NCBI GenBank assembly: GCA_902586925.1
Contig: CACIJE010000001.1
Span: forward strand, 5,720-69,719
Source: an uncultured SAR86 cluster bacterium
Lineage (GTDB): Bacteria; Pseudomonadota; Gammaproteobacteria; Magnimaribacterales; D2472
Direction: 5' to 3'
Length of the DNA stretch: 64,000 bases
Shown: positions 879 to 24,810 of the stretch, one piece after another
How positions within the stretch are numbered: the first letter of the stretch is position 1
Layout: every line of letters begins with the position of its first letter
Position numbers and translations under genes: made by a program
Notes under the pieces: model-generated
What the model was told of the DNA's origin: nothing
What the model saw: only the letters and a program-made list of their open reading frames with translations
The model's database searches: none

Positions 879-898
879 TTGCTTATAAGTTTAGTGTT

Positions 899-1207
899 TT
901 AGTACTTTTTAATATTAATAGTTTTTTTTCTTATTGTTCTAGCTTCTTTTGCAGGTACAATCTTTTCTGGCTGTTCCTTATAGCTTATAAATCCCCACTC
1001 AAGATTATAGTTGTTCAACCTTGCAGAAACATGATTTCCCATTGCTTCTTTAAGTTTATCCATACATAAATCTTTATGTATTTTTGCATCCTTCATTACT
1101 CTGTCGCATTCAAGAATTTGCTCTGCGTATATTTCAAGATCCTTTGCAAGAACTTTTATATCTTCATTTGAGCTAGAAGATAGTTTTTTTAATGAGCTCA
1201 TATTCAT
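899..1207 (-). CDS. hypothetical protein (102 aa)
   Basis: ORF with GGAG RBS upstream and an operator palindrome 46 bp upstream; no recognised motif. Confidence 0.7.
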   Translation of the reverse strand: MNMSSLKKLSSSSNEDIKVLAKDLEIYAEQILECDRVMKDAKIHKDLCMDKLKEAMGNHVSARLNNYNLEWGFISYKEQPEKIVPAKEARTIRKKTINIKKY

Positions 1208-1252
1208 ATAGTTCTCCGTTTAATTATTGATTTAAAGATTATTAAATAGTTT

Positions 1253-1271
1253 TGCGACATTTTGTGTCGTA
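1253..1271. promoter_or_regulatory. palindromic operator copy 1 (putative WYL binding site)
   Basis: TGCGACA-TTTTG-TGTCGTA. Confidence 0.75.
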
Positions 1272-1284
1272 TAAAACTAATTTT

Positions 1285-2103
1285 TTAAATGAGTTTATTT
1301 TCTTTCATTCCATCAAATAGCTCAGCATACTCACATTGTTTATCTCCTTTTGGACCAAAACCAGAGTCCGCATGCCTTGGACATTCATTCATTAGAAGAC
1401 AATTCTTAAGTTCCAAAATAGTATCCTCAACCCATGAATCATCTGCGTCATAAGATATCAATTGAACATCAAACCTCATGTTTGCTTTGTCAATTTCATC
1501 ATTTAACATACCGTCTTCGAAATGTTGATCACCATTTACATAAACAAAATAACCAGTTTTACTTACATTGAAGCCTTCTTGTCTTAAAATCCATTGATAC
1601 ATATCCATTTGTTTTTTGTAAGACTCCTTATATGCACCTACTAAGGTTATTTGGTTTAATGCAGTACCTTCATCATTTTTCCTTCCAGCAGTACTTTTAT
1701 AATCAACAACAAAAATTTCATCAGTTTTAAGATCATGCCAAACATCATCCAAGCCACCCCCAATGATCAAATTGGATGGCTCATGGAAAGTTCTCAATCC
1801 AAGTTGAAGTGACTTTGTCCAAAGTTCAAAATTTTCATGTTTAAATGGTACTAGATGACCTAAACCATTTCTTTCCATAAATGGATGTGGCTTTTGCATT
1901 TCTCGATATCTATCAAAATCTTTTTTTAACAATGTATCAGTTGCAGAATTAAGCAAAAAGCCAGGCATTCCTGGAAATTTAATTCCCTTTACCCTATTCA
2001 TCCAAAAGCAAGCAGGGCAATTCATAAATGATTGAATTTGAGATCTGCTTACCTCATAGGGTTCTGGATGTTCTGGTTTATATGTTCCTCTGTGTCTTGC
2101 CAT
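1285..2103 (-). CDS. PD-(D/E)XK nuclease, RecB/Cas4-like
   Basis: SRSQIQSFMNCPACFW, GGLDD, VVDYKST and QMDMYQ motifs, plus C-terminal cysteines. Confidence 0.8.
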   Translation of the reverse strand: MARHRGTYKPEHPEPYEVSRSQIQSFMNCPACFWMNRVKGIKFPGMPGFLLNSATDTLLKKDFDRYREMQKPHPFMERNGLGHLVPFKHENFELWTKSLQLGLRTFHEPSNLIIGGGLDDVWHDLKTDEIFVVDYKSTAGRKNDEGTALNQITLVGAYKESYKKQMDMYQWILRQEGFNVSKTGYFVYVNGDQHFEDGMLNDEIDKANMRFDVQLISYDADDSWVEDTILELKNCLLMNECPRHADSGFGPKGDKQCEYAELFDGMKENKLI

Positions 2104-2122
2104 AACTAATTATAACCACAAA

Positions 2123-2890
2123 TCAAAGCAAGGGTTTTTTTATAGCTTTTGCATCTTTTACGCCAAGGATATCTTTAATAAATCGGTATCCCTCTTGCCC
2201 CCTCTTCTTGATAAGCGCCTTTTTAAAAATATCTTTTTCCTCACCAGATAGACCATAAATAAAATCAAGCATATGTTTGTTGGTGCCACCAAAAATAGGC
2301 ATAGTTATGTAAAAAGCGTTTTTGGTGCAGGCTACAGTTTGTCCCTCTTCATTTTGATTAATGGCGATTTGTTGCCCTCTAATATTACTTTTATCAACAA
2401 TAAGGTGCTTAAAGTCTAGGATATATTTAGCGTTATATAGGATTGAATTATTTTTTTTATTATCGACTTTTTGATTTTTAATTATTTTTTTTAATTCAGG
2501 AAACTTACCATCTATCGGATTAAAAAAAAATGTATTAATAGCAGCGTTATCAAGACTAATAAAATATTTTCTATACATATTTTTTGATATGTTTGAACGA
2601 TATTTAACAATAATTTTTTTCTTTCTATTTGCTGATTTTCTTGAGAGAGTAATTAATTTCTCCAGGCCCTTTTTAGGAATAATGATTCCTTTTTTATGAG
2701 AACATGAGCCTAACTCGTCATAGAAACATATTATTCTGTGGCCATCTGTGGCAACTATATTTACACCGCCATGTACAGAAGGATTTATAAAAACACCTTG
2801 TAAATTCTGCCTCCAATCAACATTTGGCACAATAAACATTGCATTGCCAAACATTCCAGCATTGAATTCTAATAAAGTATTCTTATGCAT
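2123..2890 (-). CDS. truncated DNA polymerase III beta-clamp-like protein
   Basis: RQNLQGV...IVATDGHRI and IDGKFP match the DnaN central domain; YITMPI resembles the DnaN C-terminal strand. Likely start ATG 2890 (track starts at 2899). Confidence 0.65.
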   Translation of the reverse strand: MHKNTLLEFNAGMFGNAMFIVPNVDWRQNLQGVFINPSVHGGVNIVATDGHRIICFYDELGSCSHKKGIIIPKKGLEKLITLSRKSANRKKKIIVKYRSNISKNMYRKYFISLDNAAINTFFFNPIDGKFPELKKIIKNQKVDNKKNNSILYNAKYILDFKHLIVDKSNIRGQQIAINQNEEGQTVACTKNAFYITMPIFGGTNKHMLDFIYGLSGEEKDIFKKALIKKRGQEGYRFIKDILGVKDAKAIKKPLL

Positions 2891-5057
2891 AAGCGTCACT
2901 TGTTTCTTGTTTGTTAAAACCGAAGTCTCTCTTGTATTTAGCTATTAAAAGAAGATCATCTTCTCCTAGCTTATTGCAGAATATTTCAAATAATTTTTTT
3001 CTGTCTAATTCAGATTTAAACCATTTTGGCTTAATTTTTTGTAATCTCTTTAATGAAAGCTTTTTGGCTAATGACATATTCGATTTAAAAGCTGGGACAC
3101 ATATATCTTTATCGGTTTTGATTGTTATGTGTGCTCTTAAAAATTTTTCTTCAGGCTTGTCGTGAAAAATGTTATCAAGTAATCTTTTATTTTTTTTAGA
3201 AGAAATTGATGCATATTTAAACGATTGTGTATTTTTCATACAAGCAAATTTTAAAACATCAGGGTCTGACTTTATTCTTTCTGAAGCGTATTTTAAGCTT
3301 TGATATGATTTTATAACCGCTTGAATCATAAATTTTTTATTATCAAGTAGATTTGGTGGTATATGATTTTTTTCAAAGCAAGTAAGTCCTTGTTCTGCAA
3401 ATAATTTGAAATAAAATTTGCTATTAACAATTTTATTAAATTGCTCGGGTTTGCAAAAAGGTGCATTCCTAGGATCTTTTTTTTGACCAAATTTAATTTC
3501 AGGATCGTATATTAGAAAATTTGGATTTTTTAATAAAAAATATTCCATAATTTCACGAGTTTTGAGTTTATCTGAAATTTTAAAATAAAATAATTTGCTA
3601 TAGGATTCATTGTCTGCATGATGACGGTAATCAAAAGTTGATTGATAACTTATGATTTTTTTTAAGAACTCAAAGTCTTTATTTGATTCTATATGCTCGA
3701 TAGTTCTTTTAGTGATATCGTCAAGGAACGTCCTGACAAAACCATCTTCATAATAATTCGATATGTGAAGCATTTTTCTAAATTGTATTAAAAAAAGTTT
3801 AGAAGATTTAACCCTTTCATCTAAATTGTCGTAAAATTTTTTGATCTCATAAGAATATATAAACTCATCCCCACGATCTCCACTTACATGCGGGTGAATA
3901 TTTAATTTACATGCAATATGATGAATATATTCTGCTGCTTTTTTAGGACTAGCCTCAATATATTTTAAAAATGTGCACTTTTTTGATTCTATTTTTTTAT
4001 GCATAAAAAAAAGAGGGTGAGATGGATTATGAAGGCTGATATTTACATGACTATAAATACTATAATCTTGATCTAAAAATCTACATTCGTAGAGAAATTT
4101 GCTTATCTTTGAATCTGTAATTTTATTTATATCAATATTTTCTGAGATTTGTTTGGAGGCGTTAATCGTATTAAAAATTGGCCAGTTAAAACGAAAATTA
4201 ACAAGCTTATCTATACTTTTAGTCTTTTTAAAAAAAGCATCTAAAATAGCATTTCGTAACAAAGAAAAATCTATACCAGAAATCCTTAATTTTCTCATCA
4301 TTATTTTTGTCGATTCGTGATATCCATAATAACCTTTACCTTCAAAAGGGAATGGTAAAACATGAGGAGTTGGGGTGCTAAGTGCATAATCTATGACGAT
4401 ATCCGCGTACTCCTCTAGTGTAATTTCATTATTAAGCATGAATAAATAAGCTGCGCTTGGTGAAAGCTTAAGTGCTTGTTTTTTAATCTCAAGGTCATCA
4501 TATGTTTTAGATTTTTTTATTACTTTCCAAGGTGGGCTAAAATATTCCCATGAAGCAACGTGAAATTTGTCAAAAAGTGAAAGATTTTTAGGGTGACTAG
4601 AAGGTATTTTTAGACAATTATCATATTGTTTAGATTTTGGCACTAGTAAATTTTTTGAGTGACCAAAAGATCTTAGAATATTTTTTTTTGTTTGAAATGA
4701 GTGATCTAGAGACTCTACAAAATTAAATGAGTCATCTTTTTTATTTTCAATAATAAAATTAATTATGAACGGGTCATTAAAACATATTTCAGGCAAGTGT
4801 CTTGGCATTTTCTTTTGCCTTGTTAACCATTTTAAAACTATTTCTCTATCACTTCTTAACCTCTCAGAAATATGAGCAATATTAAAATACTTCTCATGTA
4901 TATACTCAAGTACGAAGTCTTTATCATCAAAATATTTTGATGAAATAATTTCATCTGGCTTAGTATGCCAGCGATTAGCAAGTGATTTATAGGCTTCAAT
5001 AACTGAAGATTTGTTGTTTATCAATGGTTTGTTGAATAAATTTTGACTATTTTTCAT
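2883..5057 (-). CDS. DUF4116 repeat-containing protein
   Basis: Repeats such as DDKDFVLEYI...ISERLRSDREIVL and DNKKFMIQAV...LKYASERIKSDPDVL. Confidence 0.7.
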   Translation of the reverse strand: MKNSQNLFNKPLINNKSSVIEAYKSLANRWHTKPDEIISSKYFDDKDFVLEYIHEKYFNIAHISERLRSDREIVLKWLTRQKKMPRHLPEICFNDPFIINFIIENKKDDSFNFVESLDHSFQTKKNILRSFGHSKNLLVPKSKQYDNCLKIPSSHPKNLSLFDKFHVASWEYFSPPWKVIKKSKTYDDLEIKKQALKLSPSAAYLFMLNNEITLEEYADIVIDYALSTPTPHVLPFPFEGKGYYGYHESTKIMMRKLRISGIDFSLLRNAILDAFFKKTKSIDKLVNFRFNWPIFNTINASKQISENIDINKITDSKISKFLYECRFLDQDYSIYSHVNISLHNPSHPLFFMHKKIESKKCTFLKYIEASPKKAAEYIHHIACKLNIHPHVSGDRGDEFIYSYEIKKFYDNLDERVKSSKLFLIQFRKMLHISNYYEDGFVRTFLDDITKRTIEHIESNKDFEFLKKIISYQSTFDYRHHADNESYSKLFYFKISDKLKTREIMEYFLLKNPNFLIYDPEIKFGQKKDPRNAPFCKPEQFNKIVNSKFYFKLFAEQGLTCFEKNHIPPNLLDNKKFMIQAVIKSYQSLKYASERIKSDPDVLKFACMKNTQSFKYASISSKKNKRLLDNIFHDKPEEKFLRAHITIKTDKDICVPAFKSNMSLAKKLSLKRLQKIKPKWFKSELDRKKLFEIFCNKLGEDDLLLIAKYKRDFGFNKQETSDAYA

Positions 5058-5058
5058 T

Positions 5059-6213
5059 TTAGTGCCAACTTTCAGTAGAAATTCTTATTACTTCGCCAAA
5101 AGGAAATTCTGAAGTTTCTTCACCATCAGCTGAAACTAACCACATGACAGGATCCTTTGGAACAAATTTTGGAAATTCTTCGTATCCATCTGTGAGGTAA
5201 ATAGAAACTTTATGGGAACCCATATGATTTTCGTTGTTTTTTTCAAGGTATTTAAAGAAGGGTACAAAGCTTGTTCCTCCCCCTCCCTTTAAAACTGGGA
5301 TTTCTTCAGGAGAGCTTATTTTAAATGGGCCAGACAATTCACAATCACAAAAGAAAAAGTCACATTTCACATGTGGATATGATTTTAATATTCCATTTAT
5401 CTCTGCTACAAATTGATCTATTAGATCTCTTGAGACTGAACCACTTGTATCAACACAAACTGATACTTCCAAAGCCTCGGTCATAAGACCCTCAAGATAA
5501 AGCCCTCTGTACAAGAATCTTCTGTCTAAGTCATCAAAATCTGCTGGTGTTCTTCCTACATATTTCCAAAGTGCATGTCTCCAATTCACCTCAGGTTCTA
5601 AAATATTTTCTACTTCTCTTTCCATTCCATCTGGCAAACCTCCTGTGGTATTACTGCCAAATTTGTCAGAATTATTTACCATATCGGAGTTTTTTAAAAC
5701 TTGTATTTTATCTTTCCAGTAACTTTCTATCTCCAGACCATCTGCTTGACTAGAATTATCATTAGTTCCGCCGTCTTTAAGATCCTGAATATATGATTTA
5801 TGCTTTTTGTATTTATTGTTTTTCAGTAAAGATTCGTAAATAAATTCAACTGACTTATCCCTGTATGTTTTATCAGTAATTGCTCCTTTTGGCAGTATAA
5901 AAGTAGTATTTCTTAAAATTAAATCATTTACGACTATGTCAGCAGCAATATTCCATATTTTTGGATCTCTATTTTGTCGTCTTGTAACATGCAGCAGTGC
6001 CATATGAAGAACTTCGTGCAACATTAAGGCATTTTGCTCTGAAGAATTAAGGCTTTTGAGAAAATTCATGTTGAAATAAATATCTTTTCCATCTGTACAA
6101 GCTGTATCATATTTTTTTGTTTCTTTAATCGAGGCAAATAACATCAAGGCTCCAAAGAATTGACATTCTTTTCGGACTTGAAGCTTGCATTTGCTGATAA
6201 TTTCTTCAAACAT
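5059..6213 (-). CDS. DUF2201-type metallopeptidase plus vWA-like domain protein
   Basis: TACTDG, HEVLH zincin motif, WNIAAD, MIDAS DTSGS, GGGGTSF, LTDGY. Confidence 0.88.
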   Translation of the reverse strand: MFEEIISKCKLQVRKECQFFGALMLFASIKETKKYDTACTDGKDIYFNMNFLKSLNSSEQNALMLHEVLHMALLHVTRRQNRDPKIWNIAADIVVNDLILRNTTFILPKGAITDKTYRDKSVEFIYESLLKNNKYKKHKSYIQDLKDGGTNDNSSQADGLEIESYWKDKIQVLKNSDMVNNSDKFGSNTTGGLPDGMEREVENILEPEVNWRHALWKYVGRTPADFDDLDRRFLYRGLYLEGLMTEALEVSVCVDTSGSVSRDLIDQFVAEINGILKSYPHVKCDFFFCDCELSGPFKISSPEEIPVLKGGGGTSFVPFFKYLEKNNENHMGSHKVSIYLTDGYEEFPKFVPKDPVMWLVSADGEETSEFPFGEVIRISTESWH

Positions 6214-6214
6214 T

Positions 6215-7222
6215 TTATGCTGCTAATAATTTTTGAAGTCTTTCTGCAACCTTCATAAGCTTGTTATTATTTGCAATCATATCTACTAACTGGTCCATTT
6301 GTTTAGAAGTTTTCCATTTTGCACAGACATCATAAGTACACTGACTAAGCCACTCCATTCCACCTTTATCATCAATATATAAGAAGGTGTTTTCTACTTC
6401 TTTTATGGTCTTAGCTCTTGTTGCAAGAGCGCATGTTAGTGCATACCTAGCAGATAAATCCTTAGGGAAGCTTGGTTTTGCCTTACCTTTTAATATTGGT
6501 TCAATATCTGGTAATGTTTTATAAACTTTGCAAAAACTTCTAAATTCAGCTGCACAACCCTCGCCTATTGCAGGATCTATGTCTAAATTAGCTTTCAACA
6601 AAGAATTGCTAATATCCCAACTTCTTGGTGAAGGCCATGAGGGAGAGTTTTTGTCAATTTTATGGAGATATTTTGGTCTAAAATTAAGAAATGAAATAAT
6701 TCTGTCGTCAACATCATTTGTTAAGGCATAGTCCTTAAACTCATCAAGACCTGTTGTAACCTCCAGATGAATAAATCTATTAGCCAAAGGTGCTGGCATA
6801 TCAAAAACTGCTGCAAAATCCTCTTTTCTATTTCCAGCTGACCAAATAAACCATCCGTCAGGGACTTTATAGCTACCAACTTTTCTGTCTAAAATTAATT
6901 GTTGAGCAATACCTTGAACAGCAGGTGGTGCCATATTTATTTCGTCTAAGAATAGAATGCCTTTTCCATCTTTTGGTAAAAATTCTGGGGGATACCAACA
7001 AGCAACATTATCGTTTGGAACAGGGATACCTCGTAAATCTGTTGGAGCTAATTGACTAATCCTTAGATCTATAAGCTCAAGATTATTTCTTTTTGCAACC
7101 GAACTTACTACAGATGATTTTCCAATACCTGGTGCACCCCAAATCATCAACGAAGATTGGATATTATGTTCAACTATGCTGCTAAGATAGGATGAAAGTT
7201 TTTTTATTGAAAGTTTTTTCAT
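6215..7222 (-). CDS. MoxR-like AAA+ ATPase
   Basis: Walker A GAPGIGKS, Walker B ILFLDEIN, AGNR, LANRF, SPRSW. Start ATG 7222 follows AGAGG RBS. Confidence 0.88.
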   Translation of the reverse strand: MKKLSIKKLSSYLSSIVEHNIQSSLMIWGAPGIGKSSVVSSVAKRNNLELIDLRISQLAPTDLRGIPVPNDNVACWYPPEFLPKDGKGILFLDEINMAPPAVQGIAQQLILDRKVGSYKVPDGWFIWSAGNRKEDFAAVFDMPAPLANRFIHLEVTTGLDEFKDYALTNDVDDRIISFLNFRPKYLHKIDKNSPSWPSPRSWDISNSLLKANLDIDPAIGEGCAAEFRSFCKVYKTLPDIEPILKGKAKPSFPKDLSARYALTCALATRAKTIKEVENTFLYIDDKGGMEWLSQCTYDVCAKWKTSKQMDQLVDMIANNNKLMKVAERLQKLLAA

Positions 7223-7267
7223 TTTTTTTCCTCTTTGAAATTTAATTATCATAAGATATTATTAAGT

Positions 7268-7286
7268 AACGACATTTTGTGTCGCA
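7268..7286. promoter_or_regulatory. palindromic operator copy 2, between the divergent AAA ATPase and WYL genes
   Basis: AACGACA-TTTTG-TGTCGCA. Confidence 0.8.
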
Positions 7287-7304
7287 TTTAAAGATTAAAG
7301 TTTG

Positions 7305-8315
7305 ATGAAAAAACCAACTCGTTATGAGGCTATAAGAAGAGGATTTAATATCCTCTCTATGGTCAGTCGAGCTCCATTAGGATCTAAAGATGTCCATGAT
7401 CGAATAAATCGAATTGGTACTGAAGTAAGTAGAAAAACTATTGAAAGAGATTTAAAAGAACTAACTGATCGATTCCCTGAGATGATTGAAGTTGATGATT
7501 CATCTAAACCATATACCTATAGACAGCCAAAACATGCTAGAAAATATTCTGCAATGAGTGCAGAGGAAGCTATATGTCTTCAACTTGCGTTCACTTATTT
7601 AAATCCTTTGTTGCCGAATAGATCACTCGATGATATCAGGCCTTATTTAAAAGAGGCGGAAGCTGTCCTAGGTGAGCAGTCTTCTGTAAAAATGAAAAAT
7701 TGGAAACATAAAGTTTTAACTGTTAATGAGGGTTTACAGCTTGCACAAGCAAAAATTAGAGACAATATTTTAACAAATATACACAAAGCTCTCTGGGATG
7801 GTAAAGCAATTATTGCAAGCTATCAGTCAAAAAGTAAAGCTTTTCCCTCTGAGTACAAGCTTCACCCTGCTGGGCTTGTTTACAGAGGAAGAATTTGTTA
7901 CTTAGTTTGTTCTTTTGATGATTCACCAGATAACATTATTTATTTAGCAGCACATAGGTTTCACAAAATTAAAATTTCTCTTGATACCTATAGCAGACAT
8001 AAAAATCAAAAAGTTAAAGATCTAGCTAAAGACTTATTTGGGTTTAAGCTGAATGACAAAAAAATAAATATTAAACTAAAGTTTTCTGTTCAAGCAGGAT
8101 CTCATCTGTATGAAACGCCAATTTCGAGTTCTCAAAAAATAAAGATGTCTAGAGATGGCTATATATTAGTTGAGGATAAAGTTACTGATAATATGGAACT
8201 TAGATTTTGGATAAGAGCTTTTGGAGATTCTGTAGAAGTAATTAAACCAGTCAAACTTCGAGATGAGTTTAAGAAAATATCAAAAAGAATGGTAAATTTA
8301 TATAATGAAAATTAA
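7305..8315 (+). CDS. WYL domain transcriptional regulator (HTH-WYL-WCX)
   Basis: N-terminal wHTH (VSRKTIERDLKEL), WYL region (LHPAGLVYRGRICYLV...HRF) and C-terminal WCX (WIRAFGDSVEVIKPVKLR). Confidence 0.9.
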   Translation: MKKPTRYEAIRRGFNILSMVSRAPLGSKDVHDRINRIGTEVSRKTIERDLKELTDRFPEMIEVDDSSKPYTYRQPKHARKYSAMSAEEAICLQLAFTYLNPLLPNRSLDDIRPYLKEAEAVLGEQSSVKMKNWKHKVLTVNEGLQLAQAKIRDNILTNIHKALWDGKAIIASYQSKSKAFPSEYKLHPAGLVYRGRICYLVCSFDDSPDNIIYLAAHRFHKIKISLDTYSRHKNQKVKDLAKDLFGFKLNDKKINIKLKFSVQAGSHLYETPISSSQKIKMSRDGYILVEDKVTDNMELRFWIRAFGDSVEVIKPVKLRDEFKKISKRMVNLYNEN

Positions 8316-8703
8316 GCCAAATTCTATTGATGCTGTTATTTTTTTTACATTGTATATTTGCGCTCAAGACGATTTAATTGCTAAGGAAGAAATTGAACAA
8401 ATTGATATTGAATTTCCAATGATTCAAAAATTATATTTTGATATATATGGGGAATTCATTAAAGAGGACCTTAAAGAGCTTATGAGAAGTGTTTCAAACA
8501 AATTATTATCAAGTAACAAATTTATCAAAAAAAGTGTATCAAAACTAGAAAATACTACTTTTTCAACATTAATTACAGATCCGAAGCTTCAAGACATTTC
8601 ATTATTATTCGCTAGGCATGCTGCAAGTGCAGACGGTTTACATGCTCTAGAAGAAAACAAGTTTAATTATTGGGCAAAAAAATGGGGTCTTTCGAAAGTT
8701 TAA
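8305..8703 (+). CDS. TerB-like protein
   Basis: AQDDLIAKEE and ASADGLHALEE half-repeats; overlaps the WYL stop; paralogous to 14430-14774. Confidence 0.6.
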   Translation: MKIKPNSIDAVIFFTLYICAQDDLIAKEEIEQIDIEFPMIQKLYFDIYGEFIKEDLKELMRSVSNKLLSSNKFIKKSVSKLENTTFSTLITDPKLQDISLLFARHAASADGLHALEENKFNYWAKKWGLSKV

Positions 8704-9512
8704 TGTTTTGTTATTGATGAAGTGACTACACCTATAATTTGAAAATCACAAGTCTCAAAATCTTTATAAACTTTATCTTTTTTATCAATTACAAATCCAT
8801 TTTTTCTATATTCAAGACATCCACATATAAATTCGCCGTCTATCATAGCAACAACAATATCATTAATTTCTGGTTTTTGAGATTGATCAACAATCATAAT
8901 ATCTCCGTCGTTAATACCGTGCTCTCGATTAGATTGGCCTTGAGCTCTATATAGGATAGTTGCAGATCTATTTCGAATAAGATATTTGTTTAAATCTATA
9001 GGACCTTCGATATAATCTGATTCATCACTTGGAAAACTTGGTTTATTTTTCTTATTTAAACATGGGTATATAATTTTTCTCAAAAATTTGGTATCAATAA
9101 CCTTTCCACTATATACAGCATCACAAAGTTCTTCTGATTCAAAAAATCTTTTTTCATGGGAACCAAATTTATTAGTTTTAATGTTTAAGCTTATCGGGAA
9201 GAAAATTGTTCCTGGCTTTGAACGATCTTCTGTTAATAAAGCTCTTAATGGAGACGGTATGGAATATCCATCAAAAATGTAATCTGCAAATCGTAATAAA
9301 TTAAAGAAGATTTTCCAAGCAATGCTTTTTTTTAAATTAGCTTCTTTTTGTAAACACTTTTCTCTTAGATTTTTATATTTTTGTTCAAGATATTCTTTTT
9401 TATTACGTAAATCTGAAATTTCTTTTGCTTTGACAAAAATTTCGTCTCCCTCAGCAGGCAAGCTTTCTCTTATTCTTATGTCTTTGGAAACTTTTATTAT
9501 CTCATCAGGCAT
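8700..9512 (-). CDS. N-terminally extended UmuD/S24-like protein, probably catalytically inactive
   Basis: C-terminal half aligns with the UmuD at 28389 (DYIEGPIDLNKYLIRN, RAQGQS, IDGEF). Start 9512 (MPDEII) or 9596. Confidence 0.75.
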   Translation of the reverse strand: MPDEIIKVSKDIRIRESLPAEGDEIFVKAKEISDLRNKKEYLEQKYKNLREKCLQKEANLKKSIAWKIFFNLLRFADYIFDGYSIPSPLRALLTEDRSKPGTIFFPISLNIKTNKFGSHEKRFFESEELCDAVYSGKVIDTKFLRKIIYPCLNKKNKPSFPSDESDYIEGPIDLNKYLIRNRSATILYRAQGQSNREHGINDGDIMIVDQSQKPEINDIVVAMIDGEFICGCLEYRKNGFVIDKKDKVYKDFETCDFQIIGVVTSSITKH

Positions 9513-9600
9513 ATACGTTTGATCTATTAATATAGACAAAACATATATTTGATTTATTTTAGTGTTTCCTAATAAACCTTTAGTAGTGAAAATCATTACT

Positions 9601-9789
9601 TTAAAAAATGATTTTTAAACTAAATGAAATTTGACTTGGTTCTTCCTCAACACAGGATTTCGAGGAGAAAATGTGTTTAATATTACTATTTTTTTTATAA
9701 ACATAGTTTTTTGATAATTCATTGTAAAAATCTGATGACATATTTGGAAGTTCTAGTTGCAATTCTTTTGATTCTGATTCTGTAGTCAT
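9601..9789 (-). CDS. small hypothetical protein (62 aa)
   Basis: Strong AGGAG RBS; operator 47 bp upstream. Confidence 0.6.
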   Translation of the reverse strand: MTTESESKELQLELPNMSSDFYNELSKNYVYKKNSNIKHIFSSKSCVEEEPSQISFSLKIIF

Positions 9790-9835
9790 TTTTATTCTCC
9801 TATTAATTTTTAATAATAAAATTATTTATCAATCA

Positions 9836-9854
9836 TGCGACAGAATAGGTCGGA
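9836..9854. promoter_or_regulatory. palindromic operator copy 3
   Basis: TGCGACA-GAATA-GGTCGGA. Confidence 0.65.
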
Positions 9855-9865
9855 AAAAAATATTA

Positions 9866-10116
9866 GAGTGGCGCCCTTGCATAATTTTACTCATACCAGG
9901 GCGCATCTATAGTGATCCGTTGCATATAGATGCTTTAACAAGCTCACCTAACAAGGCGTCTTTCACTTTGCATATAGATGCTTTAACAAGCTTAGCTAAC
10001 AAACGTCCTTGTTCTTGATTTTCCGCAAAGCTAATGTGCTTTTGTACTAATAACATAAAATATCGATAAATATTACGGTAATAATCAATGTTTAATAAAA
10101 TATGCCACTCAATCAA
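9866..10116 (-). ncRNA. putative structured non-coding RNA, copy A
   Basis: Several helices with compensatory changes relative to copy B; G-U pairs favour the minus strand; lies just downstream of operator 4. Confidence 0.6.
9920..10007. repeat. internal tandem duplication with 48-bp period
   Basis: TTGCATATAGATGCTTTAACAAGCT is identical at 9920-9944 and 9968-9992. Confidence 0.9.
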
Positions 10117-10139
10117 CTATGAAAATTATTTATCAATCA

Positions 10140-10158
10140 TGCGACATAATAGGTCGGA
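10140..10158. promoter_or_regulatory. palindromic operator copy 4
   Basis: TGCGACA-TAATA-GGTCGGA. Confidence 0.65.
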
Positions 10159-10183
10159 CAAAAAGATATACTAGAATTGAAAT

Positions 10184-10379
10184 CGCCCTCGCATAATTTT
10201 ACTCATACGAGGGTGCTTCAATGTAGATCCGTAGCATAAGAAGATTTAACAAGCTCAGCTAAAAAAGCATCCTTGTATTGTTTTTTCCGCAAAGCTAATG
10301 TGCTTTTGTACTAATAACGTAAAATATCGATAAACATTACGGTTAAAAACAAGGTTTAATTAAATATGCCACCAAACCA
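10184..10379 (-). ncRNA. putative structured non-coding RNA, copy B
   Basis: Homologous to copy A with the same helices and no conserved reading frame; begins right after the stop of the 717-aa gene. Confidence 0.55.
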
Positions 10380-12533
10380 CTATGCCACTTCTGCAAGTAG
10401 TTGTTTTTTAAATTTCGAATGCTTCAGCATCGACTTATGAACAACTGATCTATAAGCATTATAGACATAGATTTTTTCTTTTTTATCTAATTCTGAGGTA
10501 TCTAATTTATAGAAATCATTTTTGTTTAGTAAAAATTTTGCGTATTCTGGATTAATTTTAAAAACACAATTTGAAATTGTTTTATGAAAACAATGTGTTC
10601 TAAGAATTAATTGTAAGATTGATAAATCCTGGTCACGACCTCCAGTCAACATTGGATTATGTAATAAATATTGTGCAATAAATAACCTATTTTTAAGCAA
10701 TTTAGATCCTCGAAGATCATCAGTTGATTCAATGTGTGGTGGAGGCACACTTATGATAAATTTAGAAAATTTATCTCCAGAAATAATAACTTTATTGAAA
10801 CAGTTTAAACATTTAAAATTTTTTCTATATACCTGCTTGATTAAACAGTGATTTTTTTTCCATTGAGGATAAATCTTAAGAACAGTTTGCATCTGTTTTA
10901 CTGAATAACTTTCTAAAGTTTCAAGAAAAAGATTTTTTGATTCTTCTGAAGAGTAGTGTTTAGATGCAAAATTCCAAAACTGAATTAATATATCAAGACT
11001 GTGTTTCTGTGAAACATAATATTTATATATTTTTTTTATCAAATCTTTATCTTTGTATGGATCTAAATTTAACTTTGAAAATCTATTTCCTCTTGAGGAT
11101 ATGAGATTTTGTGGCATCTTTCTCATGAAATATTTCTTAATATTGTATTGATCATCTCGTAGCATGTGAAAAGTATTTTGTATATGGTCATAATCTGCAT
11201 ATATCGATTGCGTTATAAGATACTTTCGTATTTTTGGACAATTTTTAATCATCAGCTTGACTAGGTTGTAATCAAAATCTAAAAGCTCATGGGATGAAAT
11301 ATTAAATGTAGAGCCATAGAATTTAAATACCCTGATTAGTTCTCTACATATTTTAAAATCGCTTTGCAAAATTGTTGGAAGCGCTAAATATGACTTTCCA
11401 ATTTTTCCTGATACATGAGATGCTTTTTCTGTAGAGCCTTGAAATAGATTTACCTGGCTAAATTTTTCATTTGGATTTAATTTTAGTTGTTCAAGCTCTT
11501 TTTTAATGTTTTGTAATTCCCTATAAAAGTTATCTTTATGTATTTTATAATCTGATAACTTAGCTGTTTCCATTTTATTTAAATTATTCTTTATCAAACT
11601 CAATTCAAAAATATCTATATTTCCATTATTTTTTTTACGGTGATGTGTTTTAGCAGCAAGTAATAAAAAGGCTTTTTTAGCTTTAGAAAGCTTTATATTT
11701 TTTTTAGACAAATCTAGAATTTCTTGATATTTAATTTTAGTTACTTTGCTTTCAGGACAATAATCAAAGTAATACTGAAGATCATTATCTGTTAAGTTTT
11801 TTAGATTGATATCAATATGTTGAAAACATTTATTTTTTACAATTTTTGTTGTTATTGTATCTATGTTCCTAATTTTTGAAGGGATGCAGTCGATTTGATT
11901 GGGATAGTTATCTATCATGCAAGATGCAATATCTAAATCGTATTGCATATCAGAGGTTAAATCACCATACGTAAAAATAACATCATTAGTATTTCTATTA
12001 TTTTTTGAAAAGCAGCCGTTATTTAGGGCTTTTAGAAGTTGATTTTTTTTGAGTTTTCTTCCTATTCCTTTATGCAGTGGTAATCCAAACTCAACCAGCT
12101 TTTGAGTTATTTCAGGATCATTTAAGACTTTAAATGATATGACTCTTACAAAAGATGTCGTATTAAAGCTTTTAGAATTTTTACTTAATAATTTTAATAA
12201 CAGTCCTTTATCTTCTCTGATGTATGAAGGCATAATCCCCCAGTCAAGCGGATGTTTTGAGTTTGTGATTACTTTTATATATAGATTTTTATGAGATATA
12301 TCTTTTGAAATTTTATATCTATGCAGCCTGCCAAGCCATCCTTGTAAAGACCAGTTATCATATCTTATTATAAAATTTAATAGGTCTACATCAGTAAGAT
12401 ATTTAAAAGGAATGGAATTAATATCCATTTTTTTACTTTTAATTTTTCTTAAAACACCTGCTTTGTTAAGCAAATGTTTTGTCTTAAAATCAAGGTAAAC
12501 AAACCCTGCAGATGATTTTGTTAAATAGTTCAT
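10380..12533 (-). CDS. large basic hypothetical protein, possibly with degenerate DUF4116-like repeats
   Basis: 717-aa ORF with segments like MPSYIREDKGLLLKLL, LTSDMQYDLDIA and LPTILQSDFKIC. Confidence 0.7.
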   Translation of the reverse strand: MNYLTKSSAGFVYLDFKTKHLLNKAGVLRKIKSKKMDINSIPFKYLTDVDLLNFIIRYDNWSLQGWLGRLHRYKISKDISHKNLYIKVITNSKHPLDWGIMPSYIREDKGLLLKLLSKNSKSFNTTSFVRVISFKVLNDPEITQKLVEFGLPLHKGIGRKLKKNQLLKALNNGCFSKNNRNTNDVIFTYGDLTSDMQYDLDIASCMIDNYPNQIDCIPSKIRNIDTITTKIVKNKCFQHIDINLKNLTDNDLQYYFDYCPESKVTKIKYQEILDLSKKNIKLSKAKKAFLLLAAKTHHRKKNNGNIDIFELSLIKNNLNKMETAKLSDYKIHKDNFYRELQNIKKELEQLKLNPNEKFSQVNLFQGSTEKASHVSGKIGKSYLALPTILQSDFKICRELIRVFKFYGSTFNISSHELLDFDYNLVKLMIKNCPKIRKYLITQSIYADYDHIQNTFHMLRDDQYNIKKYFMRKMPQNLISSRGNRFSKLNLDPYKDKDLIKKIYKYYVSQKHSLDILIQFWNFASKHYSSEESKNLFLETLESYSVKQMQTVLKIYPQWKKNHCLIKQVYRKNFKCLNCFNKVIISGDKFSKFIISVPPPHIESTDDLRGSKLLKNRLFIAQYLLHNPMLTGGRDQDLSILQLILRTHCFHKTISNCVFKINPEYAKFLLNKNDFYKLDTSELDKKEKIYVYNAYRSVVHKSMLKHSKFKKQLLAEVA

Positions 12534-13336
12534 ATGCTTAAAGAGGGTAAAGAGTTTTTGCTGTTTGCTAAATCTAATAACCTTTTTTTATGAGTTGCAA
12601 TAATAAAGGGGTCTGTATCAAACCTTTGACATCTTTTCTTATATTGCTGCCATATTAACTTAAAAATTTTTGGATCTTGCATCAAAGAATAGTCGAGCAC
12701 ATCGATTTGAATATTTTTAAGTTTTTTTATAAATTGTAGTCTATTATTTTTCTTTGAAAAAATCGCAGCTTCTATAAAGCATAAATATTTTTTTTCAGAC
12801 TTTTCAAGACAATCAAAATACTTACCATTTTCAATAATTATTTGTCTTTTTATATCTAAATTTGGATGAACATTAGTTAAAAATTTTATTAGCTCTGGAT
12901 TAGAGTTGCAACTGTATTCCTTTATATTCTGTGGCATATGATTAACTAAAAATGGAAAGGAGTCAGAAATCTTTTTTCCAATCTTATTGTTAAGCTTAGA
13001 TTTGTAAACTTTATAAAAAATATCTCGAACATCTTTTTTTATCTTATCAATTTTATTTTCGAATATATTTTGAGACATATGCTCATGGGCATATTTAAAA
13101 ACATTCCCTCTTTTATCTTTTCCTTGATCAATGATCAATCTTGTTTGCGAAAATTGTGGCCAAATATGATATTTGACCTTCTTGTTAGATGATTTTCTGT
13201 AAAATCCTCCATTGCCGCCAACAGAATCTATAAGCATTTGCATTTTCTCAATGTCATTTTTTAGTCCCATCCAATAGAAGTTTTCGTTTGCTATATGAGA
13301 CTCTCCTCTTGCCTCTTCTAATAATTTTATATTCAT
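12530..13336 (-). CDS. hypothetical protein (268 aa)
   Basis: ORF with a 4-bp overlap to the 717-aa gene. Confidence 0.7.
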   Translation of the reverse strand: MNIKLLEEARGESHIANENFYWMGLKNDIEKMQMLIDSVGGNGGFYRKSSNKKVKYHIWPQFSQTRLIIDQGKDKRGNVFKYAHEHMSQNIFENKIDKIKKDVRDIFYKVYKSKLNNKIGKKISDSFPFLVNHMPQNIKEYSCNSNPELIKFLTNVHPNLDIKRQIIIENGKYFDCLEKSEKKYLCFIEAAIFSKKNNRLQFIKKLKNIQIDVLDYSLMQDPKIFKLIWQQYKKRCQRFDTDPFIIATHKKRLLDLANSKNSLPSLSI

Positions 13337-13401
13337 TAACAGTATTTCTTATGTTTTGCCATTTACCTTATTGGTAATAGGAATAAATTTTTACTAAGAG
13401 T

Positions 13402-13420
13402 TGCGACATTTAGTGTCGCA
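13402..13420. promoter_or_regulatory. palindromic operator copy 5 (perfect arms)
   Basis: TGCGACA-TTTAG-TGTCGCA. Confidence 0.8.
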
Positions 13421-13435
13421 TAGAAGAATAAAACT

Positions 13436-13762
13436 TTAGTGATGATTTTCTATATCTGGAGGATCGCTTTTTATTAAATATTCAATATCTTCTGATTGTT
13501 CTTGTTTATGCCCAACGAGAATTATTATTTTATTGTTGCTTAGGACGCAAGTATAAATTCTTCCCTGATTATCATTTCCATTTGATATCTTATGAGTAAC
13601 TTCTTTCCAGTGCTTAGTTTTTTGTACATTTTTATAAGAGATATAGCTGTCTTTACTATGAATTTTATATATTACATCCTCCAGCTTCTGAGTATCTTTG
13701 AAATGCCTATAAACAGCTTTAAGACCCCTTGGTAATAAATTAATATTCGAGTATCTATCCAT
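13436..13762 (-). CDS. hypothetical protein, possible RelE/HigB-fold toxin
   Basis: C-terminal GRIY...IIILVGHKQEQSEDI resembles the RIY...LL.GxK..Q..DI pattern of HigB-like toxins. Confidence 0.5.
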   Translation of the reverse strand: MDRYSNINLLPRGLKAVYRHFKDTQKLEDVIYKIHSKDSYISYKNVQKTKHWKEVTHKISNGNDNQGRIYTCVLSNNKIIILVGHKQEQSEDIEYLIKSDPPDIENHH

Positions 13763-13788
13763 GCTTCTCTCAAATTGCGATACTAATA

Positions 13789-13807
13789 TGCGACATTTTA
13801 GGTCGCA
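13789..13807. promoter_or_regulatory. palindromic operator copy 6
   Basis: TGCGACA-TTTTA-GGTCGCA, with an extra half-site TGCGATA at 13776-13782. Confidence 0.75.
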
Positions 13808-14011
13808 TTGATTACAAATCTAAAAGCTGTCTATATTCTTGAAGCTCATATCTATTTGCAATATTTAAATATGAAAATAATGCGAAGGGTTACAGAGAAA
13901 AAAATGGTTCGCAGGAATGCGGTTCTTGAGATAAATTTACTTTAGTATTTACTTAAGCATCTTTGTAATTATGATTTATAAAAATTAAAAGTTATATTTC
14001 TATTCTAGGAA

Positions 14012-14272
14012 TTAATTTATAAGCTCCCAAACACCTCTTGGGCTATCCTTTGCTGATTTTAAAATCCCTTTTTGCCTGAGATGTGTTGCTGCCCATCTAT
14101 AATCATATTGCCATGTATAAAATAAGTCGCCAGATGTTTTTAAGTCTGTTTCATGATTTTTCCATATTATTTTGGCTATCTCTATTACATTTCCACTGCC
14201 ATTATTTTCGTAAAGAGCTTCTTCAACCCATTTTGAAAGAATAATTTTATTTGATGCTATCGCTTTACCCAT
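14012..14272 (-). CDS. stand-alone Mrr N-terminal-like winged-helix protein
   Basis: RWAATHLRQKGIL...PRGVWEL is typical of Mrr_N; GGAGG RBS. Confidence 0.65.
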   Translation of the reverse strand: MGKAIASNKIILSKWVEEALYENNGSGNVIEIAKIIWKNHETDLKTSGDLFYTWQYDYRWAATHLRQKGILKSAKDSPRGVWELIN

Positions 14273-14429
14273 TAGTACCTCCCTGAATTAATTTATTGAT
14301 TAACTATATTATCAAATATTGTTGGTAACATTTATTTCAAAAATATTAATATCGCACCATACAAAATAATAGTATTTATTTGCACATTTTAATGCTTGGT
14401 GTAAATTAATAACTACATGGGGACAAATT

Positions 14430-18917: not shown

Positions 18918-18919
18918 TA

Positions 18920-19891: not shown

Positions 19892-19906
19892 ACTTTAACT
19901 AATTCT

Positions 19907-22045: not shown

Positions 22046-22057
22046 GAGATAAAAAAC

Positions 22058-22987: not shown

Positions 22988-22992
22988 AAATT

Positions 22993-24748: not shown

Positions 24749-24810
24749 ACTTTATTTTGTTCGTATTCTCTTAATCCTTTATGATAATTCATGGTTTCTG
24801 AATAAAAGTT

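Follow-up and report, generated by a model that had tools for sequence, protein, structure and literature searches.

The window (the whole stretch of DNA that was analysed, 64,000 nucleotides from an uncultured SAR86 cluster bacterium) includes an accessory region of ~25 kb, here called the island, in which six copies of a palindrome stand at the heads of leftward operons. The genes and related features there are:

3–878, minus strand, running off the window: p292, a conserved member of the putative regulon
899–1207, minus strand: g102, likewise a conserved member
1285–2103, minus strand: PD-(D/E)XK nuclease, Cas4-like, closing the core operon
2123–2899, minus strand: protein resembling the beta clamp (dnaN model, E 1.6e-11; DNA_pol3_beta_2 scoring under the Pfam cut-off; phrog_3007/947)
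2883–5057, minus strand: DUF4116-repeat protein, a variable insert of the core operon
5059–6213, minus strand: DUF2201_N metallopeptidase-VWA fusion (family match; phrog_1314)
6215–7222, minus strand: MoxR/AAA_5 ATPase (phrog_1297), which opens the divergent operon; present in 71/88 related loci at a median identity of 82%
7305–8315, plus strand: WYL regulator, 336 amino acids (wHTH 1–75, three helices 86–134, WYL, WCX)
8305–8703, plus strand: p132, in the WYL-p132 operon, found in 81/88 related loci
8700–9596, minus strand: 298 amino acid protein whose C-terminal half is a UmuD-like S24 peptidase (family match)
9601–9789, minus strand: p62, a gene of the S24 unit (8700–9789)
9855–10385, minus strand: ~300-nt tandem duplication, two copies of the p717 stop codon, 3'UTR, terminator hairpin, and operator
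10380–13762, minus strand: p717, p268, and p108, cargo headed by sites 5 and 6

The five leftward units (g102 and p292; AAA, VWA, DUF4116, clamp-like, and PD-(D/E)XK; p62 and S24; p268 and p717; p108) comprise 12 ORFs, and the WYL-p132 operon is additional. The protein p132 is possibly TerB-like, a lead for which BLASTP against the TerB of the window gave no match.

The core CGAC-N7-GTCG has exactly six matches in the window (1255, 7270, 9838, 10142, 13404, and 13791), where 0.02 are expected and 0/100 shuffles reach six. Over the whole genome (9 contigs, 1,182,387 bases), a motif scan yielded the same six copies, all within the island and none inside genes; in a weight matrix built from them, the sites score 24–30 bits and the next best genome position 13.4. 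The pattern occurs 0–2 times per genome in 24 genomes of the same genus that yielded no WYL gene. The six-site observation of the original prediction is thus confirmed, although its consensus, TGCGACA-N5-(T/G)GTCGCA, stood only in part: the core is exact at 6/6 sites, whereas the longer form is exact at 13402 and 13789, the other four sites having one or two mismatches to TGCGACA-N5-TGTCGCA. All six sites are, as described, intergenic and 5' of a minus-strand unit, and the reported spacings of 46, 46, and 47 nt to the ATG agree (1253 to 1207, 7268 to 7222, and 9836 to 9789), the AAA ATG at 7222 being preferred over the longer ORF start at 7252 by homologues and its ribosome site. The remaining two distances are 66 and 27 nt. 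The features at these putative operators are:

1253–1271, minus strand: site 1, heading g102-p292 (minus strand, TACGACACAAAATGTCGCA); a syntenic site is kept before the g102 operons of relatives
1238–1243, minus strand: predicted -10 of site 1, AATAAT, at +26 to +31 from the first C of the core
7268–7286, unstranded: site 2, in the bidirectional region, 46 nt upstream of the ATG of AAA (7222) and 18 nt upstream of that of WYL (7305); this is the site noted earlier between the two divergent genes
7253–7258, minus strand: predicted -10 of the AAA operon promoter, TATCTT, in register
7235–7262, plus strand: candidate sigma-70-like WYL promoter, TTGAAA-16-TATTAT (10/12; pattern match only)
9836–9854, minus strand: site 3, heading p62-S24; predicted -10 AATAAT at 9821–9826
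10140–10158, minus strand: site 4, heading the duplicated non-coding unit; predicted -10 AATAAT at 10125–10130
13402–13420, minus strand: site 5, a perfect palindrome heading p268-p717; predicted -10 AAAAAT at 13387–13392
13789–13807, minus strand: site 6, before p108

Beyond the motif and the -10 box, the sequences flanking the window sites share 0.15–0.57 identity, with 0.29 expected, and the highest values belong to leaders in the same register; because flank identity is near chance, the sites are not copies of a repeat element, and that explanation was ruled out. Sites 3 and 4 lie inside the ~300-nt tandem duplication, and the number of independent sites is therefore five. What had been counted as an ncRNA of the regulon turned out to be this duplicated stop-codon/3'UTR/terminator/operator unit, for which no Rfam match was found; its second copy has its own predicted promoter, at site 4.

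A generic promoter scan did no better than shuffles (61 found, 74.6 expected). In related loci, the -10 hexamer is conserved at +26 to +31 from the first C of the site: across 49 non-redundant one-way sites, A27 is present in 80% and T31 in 86%, with no conserved -35 and no TGn. Both A27 and T31 occur on at least one side of 96/115 non-redundant sites, as against a frequency of 0.116 per orientation at other offsets, and at non-redundant AAA/WYL intergenic sites they are present toward AAA in 22/22 and toward WYL in 4/22. With the -10 so placed, the site covers the -35 position, as in DriD promoters. The suggestion that fixed spacing fits activation near -35 can thus be kept for the location of the site, but the constant distance is to the -10 and not to the start codon. 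The register is the one seen in the activation complexes of DriD and PafBC whose structures are solved; the PafBC motif, tGTCgg(N10)tA(N3)T, has identical spacing (PMC8635444).

Site 6 falls outside the activator register, having a poor +26 hexamer (CGCAAT) and an ATG just 43 nt from its first C. An alternative promoter, TTTAGA-18-TAAAAT, places its -10 inside the site, so that repression is possible there, and site 6 may be a repressed promoter. The start point of the candidate WYL promoter would fall at the edge of operator 2, which is the geometry of autorepression.

The WYL regulator is encoded by the single WYL-domain gene of the genome, and Pfam assigns it WYL and WCX. Among PDB sequences, a profile search found five with WYL (E ~1e-4), of which four belong to DriD entries, the match covering WYL-WCX only; the BrxR entry 7qfz scored E 0.72, and the other matches were arginine-repressor N-terminal domains (E 0.011–0.11). 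A single-sequence search against DriD gave no match. The structure model (mean pLDDT 83.5) has three helices between wHTH and WYL, and Foldseek ranked DriD first (2e-15), then PafBC (6e-12), CapW (5e-9), and BrxR (5e-8), with 16–19% identity to DriD in the fold alignment. The protein has the build of an activator (wHTH, three-helix bundle, WYL, WCX), with DriD as its closest solved relative.

In 88 related marine loci, the WYL gene is divergent from a MoxR-ATPase/zincin-VWA/clamp-like/Cas4-like operon, with a palindrome before each operon, and on long contigs the palindromes are at the same syntenic operon heads. Upstream of WYL, 79/84 loci, the window included, have a palindrome of this family no more than 110 nt from the start, and 114 of 123 instances of CGWC-N7-GWCG are outside ORF interiors, which make up 82% of the bases; in one syntenic, same-order locus (L009, 36% identity), the palindrome was not found. 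Of 49 loci whose recognition helix is ..ER.., 46 have CGAC-type sites and none the CGAA type, and 21 of the 22 loci with ..Q[DGV].. have CGAA-N7-TTCG or mixed sites. Throughout the clade in which ER changed to QD, QG, or QV, CGAA-N7-TTCG stands at every operon head: its 21 loci have 48/48 sites of the CGAA type and none of the CGWC type, and 117/117 CGWC-type sites fall in the 67 loci outside it. The co-variation is essentially one clade-level switch and thus represents one or a few events, not 21. Residues K44, E47, and R48 correspond to DriD R37, E40, and R41 when mapped by helix pattern, without a scored alignment. The arginine lost in the Q clade aligns by this pattern with DriD Arg41, and the changed base is C4; Arg41 is described as contacting the G paired with C4 (PMC10853764). 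As a counterexample, the helix type VSYRRVQSDL (5 loci) is without the arginine and still keeps CGAC.

The DNA-damage-type WYL regulator encoded in the island very probably switches it on by way of the six palindromes. That one WYL protein serves about 12 genes, as originally proposed, agrees with the single WYL gene, with sites confined to the island, and with a helix and half-site that change together in relatives; indeed, every checkable part of the WYL-regulon interpretation held in silico. Our preferred reading, with a probability of about 0.7, is that an activator of the DriD type, probably triggered by ssDNA, drives ~12 island genes, represses its own gene, and is separate from LexA/SOS. 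LexA and umuDC are encoded in the same genome, and the sole CTGT-N8-ACAG box of the window, which we take to be the gammaproteobacterial LexA box type, precedes umuD at 28364, with none in the island, in agreement with the LexA independence that had been suggested.

We infer the following for binding, signal, direction of control, and the role of the cargo. The regulator would be a DriD-type homodimer (wHTH-3HB-WYL-WCX) with the six palindromes as its operators; its WYL domain would sense ssDNA arising from DNA damage or from phage or foreign-DNA replication, by analogy with DriD, DdaA, and PafBC, which would free the wHTH pair to bind CGAC-N7-GTCG. [quoted passage not shown] Switched on would be g102-p292, the MoxR/zincin-VWA/DUF4116/clamp-like/Cas4-like operon, p62 and S24, the duplicated 3'UTR RNA, and p268-p717. 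The dimer would also occupy the bidirectional site, on the start of the canonical WYL promoter, and so repress WYL.

A site over the -35 region is also a place where a repressor could act, and a -10-only promoter in an AT-rich genome might be active unaided. The same WYL protein might be a BrxR/CapW-style repressor, blocking sigma region 4 at -35 when at rest and released by ssDNA, which we consider unlikely. Lacking any conserved -35 or TGn, the regulated promoters look activator-dependent, and their register equals that of the two structurally solved WYL activators; although a site overlapping the core promoter would suit repression, the BrxR boxes are downstream of the -10, not upstream. 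Known defence-island WYL regulators are described as repressors (BrxR, PMC9122601; CapW), a defence cluster adjoins the island, and both site 6 and WYL's own promoter have repressor geometry; however, the island protein has 336 amino acids and a DriD/PafBC-like three-helix insert, whereas BrxR and CapW have 266–288 residues and a lower fold rank.

It is very improbable that another island protein reads the palindrome, such as the LexA-like S24 protein (8700–9596) through its N-terminal half. S24 domains are typical of the palindrome-binding LexA/CI repressors, and its 188 N-terminal residues are without a family match, but the S24 part scores best as UmuD-like rather than LexA, the half-site co-varies with the WYL helix, the palindrome is of the type published for DriD and DdaA, and contigs that cover the region without an S24 homologue (L020, L051, L058, L049, L067, and L096) keep four sites each. 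We give equally little credence to structural or recombination sites at the cassette borders of a mobile island: one copy does precede each variable cargo block, and the island is absent at the DNA level from 29/30 same-genus genomes, with a decayed remnant in G015, but no recombinase gene is among the annotated ORFs from window position 1 to 28329, the -10 is conserved at a fixed offset on the gene side only, and the half-sites change with the helix of the regulator.

With the activator as the preferred reading, the nearest known system is DriD of Caulobacter crescentus, a WYL activator of an SOS-independent damage response. Its consensus, given as ATACGAC(X)7GTCGTAT (PMC10853764), has the same CGAC-N7-GTCG core, as the original prediction had stated, and an AT-rich spacer. 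In both systems, the promoters are without a -35 box and have the site across that position, at constant spacing to the -10 (PMC13004042 for DriD), and in the oligonucleotide printed there, the engineered -35 occupies site positions 3–8 by our own reading, in agreement with the island register. A site in the regulator's bidirectional promoter is reported for 68/69 DriD homologues, at a mean of ~17 nt from the start (18 nt in the island); for DriD, the divergent operon and not the regulator is the activated side (PMC13004042), matching the orientation of A27 and T31 toward AAA. The two proteins share their domain order, and both the sequence profile and the fold search rank DriD first, although at 16–19% identity the relation is visible by profile or fold only, and position 44 is Lys, whereas DriD has Arg37 (mapped by pattern). 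The DriD regulon consists of repair and division genes dispersed over the chromosome (didA, recA, recJ, dnaG, and bapE), whereas all sites here are within the regulator's own acquired island, with a cargo that is phage-like in part.

DdaA of Acinetobacter, a WYL activator of damage-response genes, is described with sites that were sought with, and resemble, CGACNNNNNNNGTCG (PMC13010146). It is described as having a wHTH-WYL-WCX build like that of the island protein (PMC13010146). It reportedly controls the core genes aciT, recA, ssb, and uvrA in a lineage without much of the SOS system, whereas the island regulon would be private, in a genome that has LexA and umuDC. The mycobacterial PafBC, the second-best fold match, acts by sigma adaptation, with a promoter-proximal half-site and -10 in the identical register and no -35; two Arg four residues apart read two G of GTC (PMC8635444). 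In contrast to the single WYL gene and full palindromes of the island, PafBC is a heterodimer with a non-palindromic half-site and is described as unable to bind DNA without RNA polymerase. Like the putative island regulator, BrxR and CapW are WYL proteins encoded in the accessory island that they control, with several boxes and a defence-rich context, but they are described as repressors of phage-defence islands. BrxR has two R-boxes, 11-bp repeats with a 5-bp spacer, downstream of the -10 (PMC9122601); such geometry is found in the island only at the WYL gene's own promoter and perhaps at site 6.

The first two operon genes match end to end the PHROG 1297/1314 pair, a MoxR AAA+ and a metallopeptidase-vWA protein (E 5e-88 and 3e-74). 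The ATPase is 47–53% identical to MoxR-like ATPases of S-TIM cyanophages, and in S-TIM54 the MoxR-like ATPase gene is followed by a gene for a 381 amino acid hypothetical protein. In jumbo phages, the MoxR/vWA pair has been proposed as a virion-assembly chaperone (PMC7824862). There are no virion genes near the pair in the island, where the operon instead adds the clamp-like protein and the Cas4-like nuclease, behind a site of the damage-type activator class.

The core CGAC-N7-GTCG has six exact matches in the 64-kb window (at 1255, 7270, 9838, 10142, 13404, and 13791) against a chance expectation of 0.02, and a scan of the whole genome (9 contigs, 1,182,387 bases) returned these six copies and no others. 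Scored with a weight matrix built from them, the six sites reach 24-30 bits and the next best position in the genome 13.4. Each of 24 genomes from the same genus that yielded no WYL gene has 0-2 copies of the core and 1-10 of the core read backwards. The sites had originally been described as copies of a 19-mer; the shared core stood, but the 19-mer is exact as written at only 2/6 sites, the remainder carrying one or two mismatches to TGCGACA-N5-TGTCGCA. Six or seven of the seven spacer bases are A/T. As had been stated, every site falls between genes, on the 5' side of a minus-strand unit, and the three start-codon distances of 46, 46, and 47 nt are correct if the AAA gene begins at ATG 7222; this start has a ribosome site and gives 335 aa, as in homologues, the longer ORF starting at 7252. 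Sites 3 and 4 lie inside a tandem duplication of ~300 nt, but the flanks are otherwise at near-chance identity, so that it is the 19-mer, and no larger element, that is repeated.

Units headed by the six sites, with the regulator gene (site positions are those of the first C of the core; g102 and the p-numbers are ORF names)
Site 1, 1255, leftward: heads g102 and p292
Site 2, 7270, leftward: heads genes for a MoxR/AAA_5 ATPase (AAA), a DUF2201 metallopeptidase-VWA fusion, DUF4116, a beta-clamp-like protein, and a PD-(D/E)XK (Cas4-like) nuclease
WYL gene, 7305-8315, plus strand: 336-aa WYL protein, divergent from AAA
Site 3, 9838, leftward: heads p62 and a protein with a UmuD-like S24 C-terminal half (S24)
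Site 4, 10142, leftward: heads a non-coding duplicate
Site 5, 13404, leftward: heads p268 and p717
Site 6, 13791, leftward: heads p108

The WYL gene is the single WYL-domain gene of the genome and is followed by p132; the 19-mer of site 2 ends 18 nt before its ATG at 7305. Window positions 1-25380 have no DNA-level match in 29/30 same-genus genomes, the conserved core of the genome resumes at ~25380, and the gene to the left of p292 (genome C1:3494-5506) is presumably uvrB, named from its N-terminal sequence alone; the region is therefore an accessory island, and its left side reads as abutting a core repair gene. The leftmost island gene, p292 (1-878), runs off the window. To the right of the WYL regulon, 14012-25278 is a defence-type cluster (14.4-25.3 kb) with an Mrr_N-like ORF, TerB, HATPase_c_3, Z1, DUF4420, AIPR, two C5 cytosine methylases, and a PDDEXK_3 protein. 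Its TerB-HATPase(-Z1) module has no preceding box in the window and adjoins a WYL box in two relatives (L034 and L089). A decayed island remnant was seen in a same-genus genome without a detectable WYL gene (G015:C1:700000-718000, at 9130-10141 of that segment), where two umuD/umuC-like pairs enclose a PD-(D/E)XK gene split over two frames, a single CGAC-N7-GTCG box (9293), and the initial 40 codons of g102.

Homologues of the WYL protein are numerous in marine metagenomes, at 50-84% identity. We collected 88 loci, 8 from genome contigs and 80 from metagenome contigs.

Island proteins found in the 88 loci (counts are lower bounds, the contigs being short)
AAA: at least 71/88, median identity 82%
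VWA fusion: at least 61/88
p132: at least 81/88
PD-(D/E)XK nuclease: at least 33/88, median identity 80%
Clamp-like protein: at least 22/88
S24: at least 17/88
g102: at least 16/88
p268: at least 14/88

Long contigs have a common layout, which on the left reads p292 to g102 headed by one site, then nuclease, clamp, a variable number of DUF4116 genes, VWA, and AAA headed by a second, from which WYL and p132 diverge rightward; on the right, S24 or other genes, a p268-like gene, and an ORF of 55-62 aa are headed by a third site, and large variable proteins by a fourth. The motif is not equally common inside genes: of 123 instances of CGWC-N7-GWCG across the 88 loci and the first 20 kb of the window, nine lie well inside naive ORFs, against 82% of bases, and several of these nine are in over-extended WYL ORFs. 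One syntenic locus from the same order, with 36% WYL identity (L009), has no CGxC-N7-GxCG, and no clear palindrome was seen in its intergenic region. Three more distant WYL homologues in the same order (31-33% identity) have two CGTC-N7-GACG boxes each (L006 at 9475 and 13833, L007 at 6210 and 10568, L008 at 9498 and 10591), one before the WYL gene and the other 22 nt before a pair of genes for 119 and 175 aa; in L006, the -10 is TATTAT at +25, and the transcript would be nearly leaderless. At the end of contig L014 (9657-10473), a segment of ~540 bp is repeated twice; it holds a CGAC-N7-GTCG box along with another palindrome that is richer in GC. Double boxes 25-35 nt apart were also seen between divergent or successive units (L011 at 11693/11728, L041 at 2026/2061, L089 at 11682/11707); the DriD paper describes a similar double site at bapE.

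Aligning 49 non-redundant one-way sites on the motif, each oriented toward its downstream gene, left a single conserved flank feature, a hexamer at +26 to +31 counted from the first C of the core (A27 80%, A29 67%, A30 61%, T31 86%); these 49 sites had no conservation at the -35 or TGn position, nor on the upstream side. A -10 hexamer at this distance with no -35 would put the core at about -38 to -24, over the missing -35. The original idea that a fixed spacing fits activation near the -35 is borne out in this form, the spacing being fixed to a predicted -10 at +26 to +31. In the window, the hexamers are AATAAT at sites 1, 3, and 4, TATCTT at site 2, AAAAAT at site 5, and CGCAAT at site 6, and the boxes are upstream of the conserved -10 at 5/6 operon heads. 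Over 115 non-redundant sites of either type, 96 have A27 and T31 on at least one side, other offsets giving 0.116 per orientation. The AAA/WYL intergenic region is polarized: among 22 non-redundant of 51 sites, A27 and T31 are found toward AAA in 22/22 and toward WYL in 4/22, A at +38 is present in 86%, and the AAA start codon follows the core by 43-48 nt in 21/22. From the core end to the WYL start is 8-33 nt in 21/22 non-redundant relatives and 84 nt in one.

This site-to--10 geometry is that published for both solved WYL activators, PafBC and DriD. The PafBC motif, as printed in PMC8635444, is tGTCgg(N10)tA(N3)T without a -35, and the distance separating the TGTC T from the hexamer T is 16 nt both there and here. 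In the bidirectional driD promoter, the site activates the divergent operon and not driD (PMC13004042); on our own reading of an oligonucleotide printed there, an engineered consensus -35 occupies site positions 3-8, and a 17-nt spacer from the +26 hexamer would put a -35 on positions 3-8 here too. TTGAAA-16-TATTAT (7235-7262), which scores best among the sigma-70-like matches of the region, would serve the WYL gene itself; its predicted start is at the edge of site 2, which would be an autorepression geometry; autorepression has been suggested for driD (PMC9186387). Site 6 is off the activator register and has a possible -10, TAAAAT, inside it, so it may be repressed rather than activated. 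A generic sigma-70 and terminator scan of 800-14500 gave 61 promoter-like sites versus 74.6 in shuffles, and two individual matches from it were kept as leads only.

The regulator has the Pfam domains WYL and WCX, and its AlphaFold model (mean pLDDT 83.5) consists of a wHTH (1-75), a bundle of three helices (86-134; helices 86-102, 109-122, and 125-134), and then WYL and WCX folds. DriD contacts RNA polymerase via its three-helix bundle (PMC13004042). Foldseek ranked DriD best (2e-15), followed by PafBC (6e-12), CapW (5e-9), and BrxR (5e-8); differing orientations of the domains keep the TM-scores low, at about 0.3. A profile built from 27 homologues matched five WYL sequences in the PDB at E of about 1e-4 over WYL-WCX, four of them entries named DriD; in the same search, the BrxR entry 7qfz had E 0.72, and other matches were arginine-repressor N-terminal domains (E 0.011-0.11). 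The WYL protein as a single sequence gave no PDB match. In the profile alignment, the DriD ssDNA-pocket residues Tyr168 and Tyr192 fall on the invariant Y173 and Y199, and the other named ligand residues are not aligned to like residues; as just these two tyrosines are, we only infer ssDNA as the effector.

From the register, the missing -35, and the build of the protein, we infer that the WYL protein activates rather than represses. The alternative, a repressor of the BrxR or CapW kind, would account for the WYL gene's own promoter, and for site 6 if that is repressed. BrxR boxes are downstream of the -10 (PMC9122601), but that geometry fits the WYL gene's own promoter only, and the 336-aa protein compares with 266-288 residues in the listed BrxR/CapW chains, which also rank lower in Foldseek; we regard a repressor as unlikely. 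The best-supported reading is a DriD-type, ssDNA-triggered activator with autorepression (probability about 0.7).

The protein that reads the sites can be approached through their variation. Counting the window, 84 loci extend 110 nt or more beyond the WYL start on its upstream side, and in 79 of them a palindrome of the site family lies within that stretch, distributed as 42 CGWC..GWCG, 16 CGAC..GTCA, 17 CGAA..TTCG, and 4 mixed, with none in 5. Where the recognition helix ends in ..ER.. (49 loci), the palindrome is CGAC-type in 46/49 and CGAA-type in 0/49; with ..Q[DGV].. (22 loci), it is CGAA-type or mixed in 21/22. The switch is island-wide: in 21 loci of the ..Q[DGV].. clade, the corresponding operon heads carry 48 sites, every one CGAA-type with no CGWC-type among them, and all 117 CGWC-type sites are confined to the remaining 67 loci. 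A PDB search with the first 85 residues found only designed TIM barrels, which are spurious, and the mapping of helix residues therefore rests on pattern rather than on a scored N-terminal alignment; by this pattern, the window helix S-R-K-T-I-E-R-D-L sets K44/E47/R48 opposite DriD Arg37/Glu40/Arg41. Loss of R48 accompanies the change of C4 to A in the sites, and PMC10853764 has DriD Arg41 reading the guanine paired with C4 in the crystal structure. By helix pattern, the lost Arg would correspond to DriD Arg41, which contacts the very base pair that changes. One helix type, VSYRRVQSDL (5 loci), lacks that Arg and retains CGAC. The co-variation is essentially one clade-level event. Because the site type follows the recognition helix across the whole island, the in silico case is strong that the reader of the sites would be the WYL protein rather than some other product of the island. 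That the LexA-like S24 protein (298 aa, 8700-9596) reads them is argued against by contigs that have no S24 homologue and still carry four sites each. The site family, its uniqueness and positions, its co-variation with the regulator, and the promoter register are solid.

The window contains one site of the LexA type, a perfect SOS box (CTGT-N8-ACAG type) 10 nt before a umuD-umuC pair (28389-30079) that is present besides the island S24 protein.

LexA-related features of the window
28364-28379: SOS box, CTGTATATATATACAG
28389-28817: umuD-like gene
28817-30079: Y-family polymerase gene
about 57141-57734: LexA gene

CTGT-N8-ACAG occurs nowhere else in the window, including 1-14000 and the island promoters; the WYL and LexA circuits are thus separate at the level of sites, in agreement with the predicted independence of LexA.

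The predicted regulon had included an ncRNA. Site 4 does head a non-coding unit, but this is a tandem duplicate comprising the last bases and stop codon of p717, the 3'UTR, a terminator hairpin, an operator, and a -10, and a search of Rfam (E up to 1, window 1-30000) gave a single snoRNA match, due to chance, with none in the repeat unit. In an alignment with three close relatives (L020-L022), each is represented by a single unit of this kind following its p717 homologue. Copy 2 contains an ORF of 69 aa (49 aa from ATG; 9907-10116) with an internal LL(A/G)(K/E)LVKASIC repeat; it is probably not a gene because copy 1 has stops in every frame of its first part and ACG replacing the ATG. Folded to minimum energy, the site-4 transcript scores z = -2.7 (3/200 shuffles were as good), and we do not claim a structured ncRNA, as the terminator hairpin accounts for much of this score. 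Contigs assembled from four RNA-library runs are short, scattered over all operons, and of depth 2-10, and give no start points, strand, or ranking of operons; the depth peak of the island is at 10226-10466, in the repeat unit, in 3/4 runs, where assembly breaks at the repeat are possible. The unit would be transcribed if site 4 works, but a function for it is not supported.

Turning to the cargo, PHROG 1297 and 1314 match the AAA and VWA proteins, respectively, over their full length, and the MoxR-like ATPases of S-TIM cyanophages share 47-53% identity with the island ATPase; in S-TIM54, the ATPase gene is followed by a hypothetical gene of 381 aa. Iyer et al. (PMC7824862) proposed the pair as a virion-assembly chaperone in jumbo phages. 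Unlike the jumbo-phage pair, the pair here shares its operon with genes for a clamp-like protein and a Cas4-like nuclease, downstream of a damage-type activator box; variable cargo and a defence cluster are its neighbours, and no virion genes are nearby. Judged by this context, the cargo may act in DNA damage or against phage. PADLOC had no defence-system model for the AAA, VWA, clamp-like, DUF4116, S24, or p717 proteins; it gave weak Cas4 matches for the nuclease and WYL matches for the regulator. TerB is present in 15% of the members of the p132 Atlas cluster, a lead only, and BLASTP found no similarity between p132 and the window's TerB protein.

Taken together, the island, a widespread marine one, may carry a self-contained, ssDNA-triggered activator circuit, although we hold this fuller picture as tentative. 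A portable "WYL-box" promoter lacking a -35 would let each cargo cassette plug in; the specificity of the regulator and that of every box would be re-tuned jointly, from CGAC to CGAA with one Arg lost; and the conserved core induced by damage or infection (MoxR ATPase, zincin-VWA, clamp-like protein, and Cas4-like nuclease) would be a DNA-processing or anti-phage machine. If true, this would be the first regulatory context for the orphan PHROG 1297/1314 pair, and it offers for the widespread, uncharacterised MoxR/zincin-VWA pair the hypothesis of an ssDNA switch shared with a clamp-like protein and a Cas4-like nuclease. The joint change of the regulator and all its operators is a natural experiment, in which one Arg is lost and one base pair is changed per box, and the compact promoter module is testable in any laboratory host. 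A full-text literature search, judged by titles and the starts of abstracts, found no paper linking WYL regulators to this gene set, and supplementary tables of the DriD papers may list non-alpha-proteobacterial homologues; co-mentions of "WYL domain" and "DUF2201" in full text were zero.

To our knowledge, accounts of DriD-type activators have so far cast them as master regulators of chromosomal repair genes, and the WYL regulators known from accessory defence islands have been described as repressors. The present island would join both: its WYL protein, of the activator type, would have a regulon made up entirely of the horizontally acquired island that encodes it, an arrangement conserved in many marine contigs. 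Of the DriD type, it has the order wHTH, three-helix bundle, WYL, and WCX in about 330 aa (336 here); a site in its own bidirectional promoter, ~17 nt before the start codon in DriD and 18 nt here; and, by promoter alignment, sites predicted to lie over the -35 at a fixed -10 distance in promoters without a -35. The suggested comparison with the published DriD motif likewise gave a match, a CGxC-N7-GxCG palindrome with an AT-rich spacer. The regulator does not match the BrxR/CapW type, with its shorter wHTH-WYL-WCX protein and boxes downstream of the -10. Nor does it match PafBC, in which two WYL paralogues pair as a heterodimer and RNA polymerase is needed for reading the one half-site; here there is one WYL-domain gene with full palindromes, and the promoter register alone is in common. 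The regulator and its box are thus of a known kind, and what would be new is an activator-type WYL circuit that serves a single mobile island, is conserved in contigs from the sea, and has undergone an island-wide switch of specificity.
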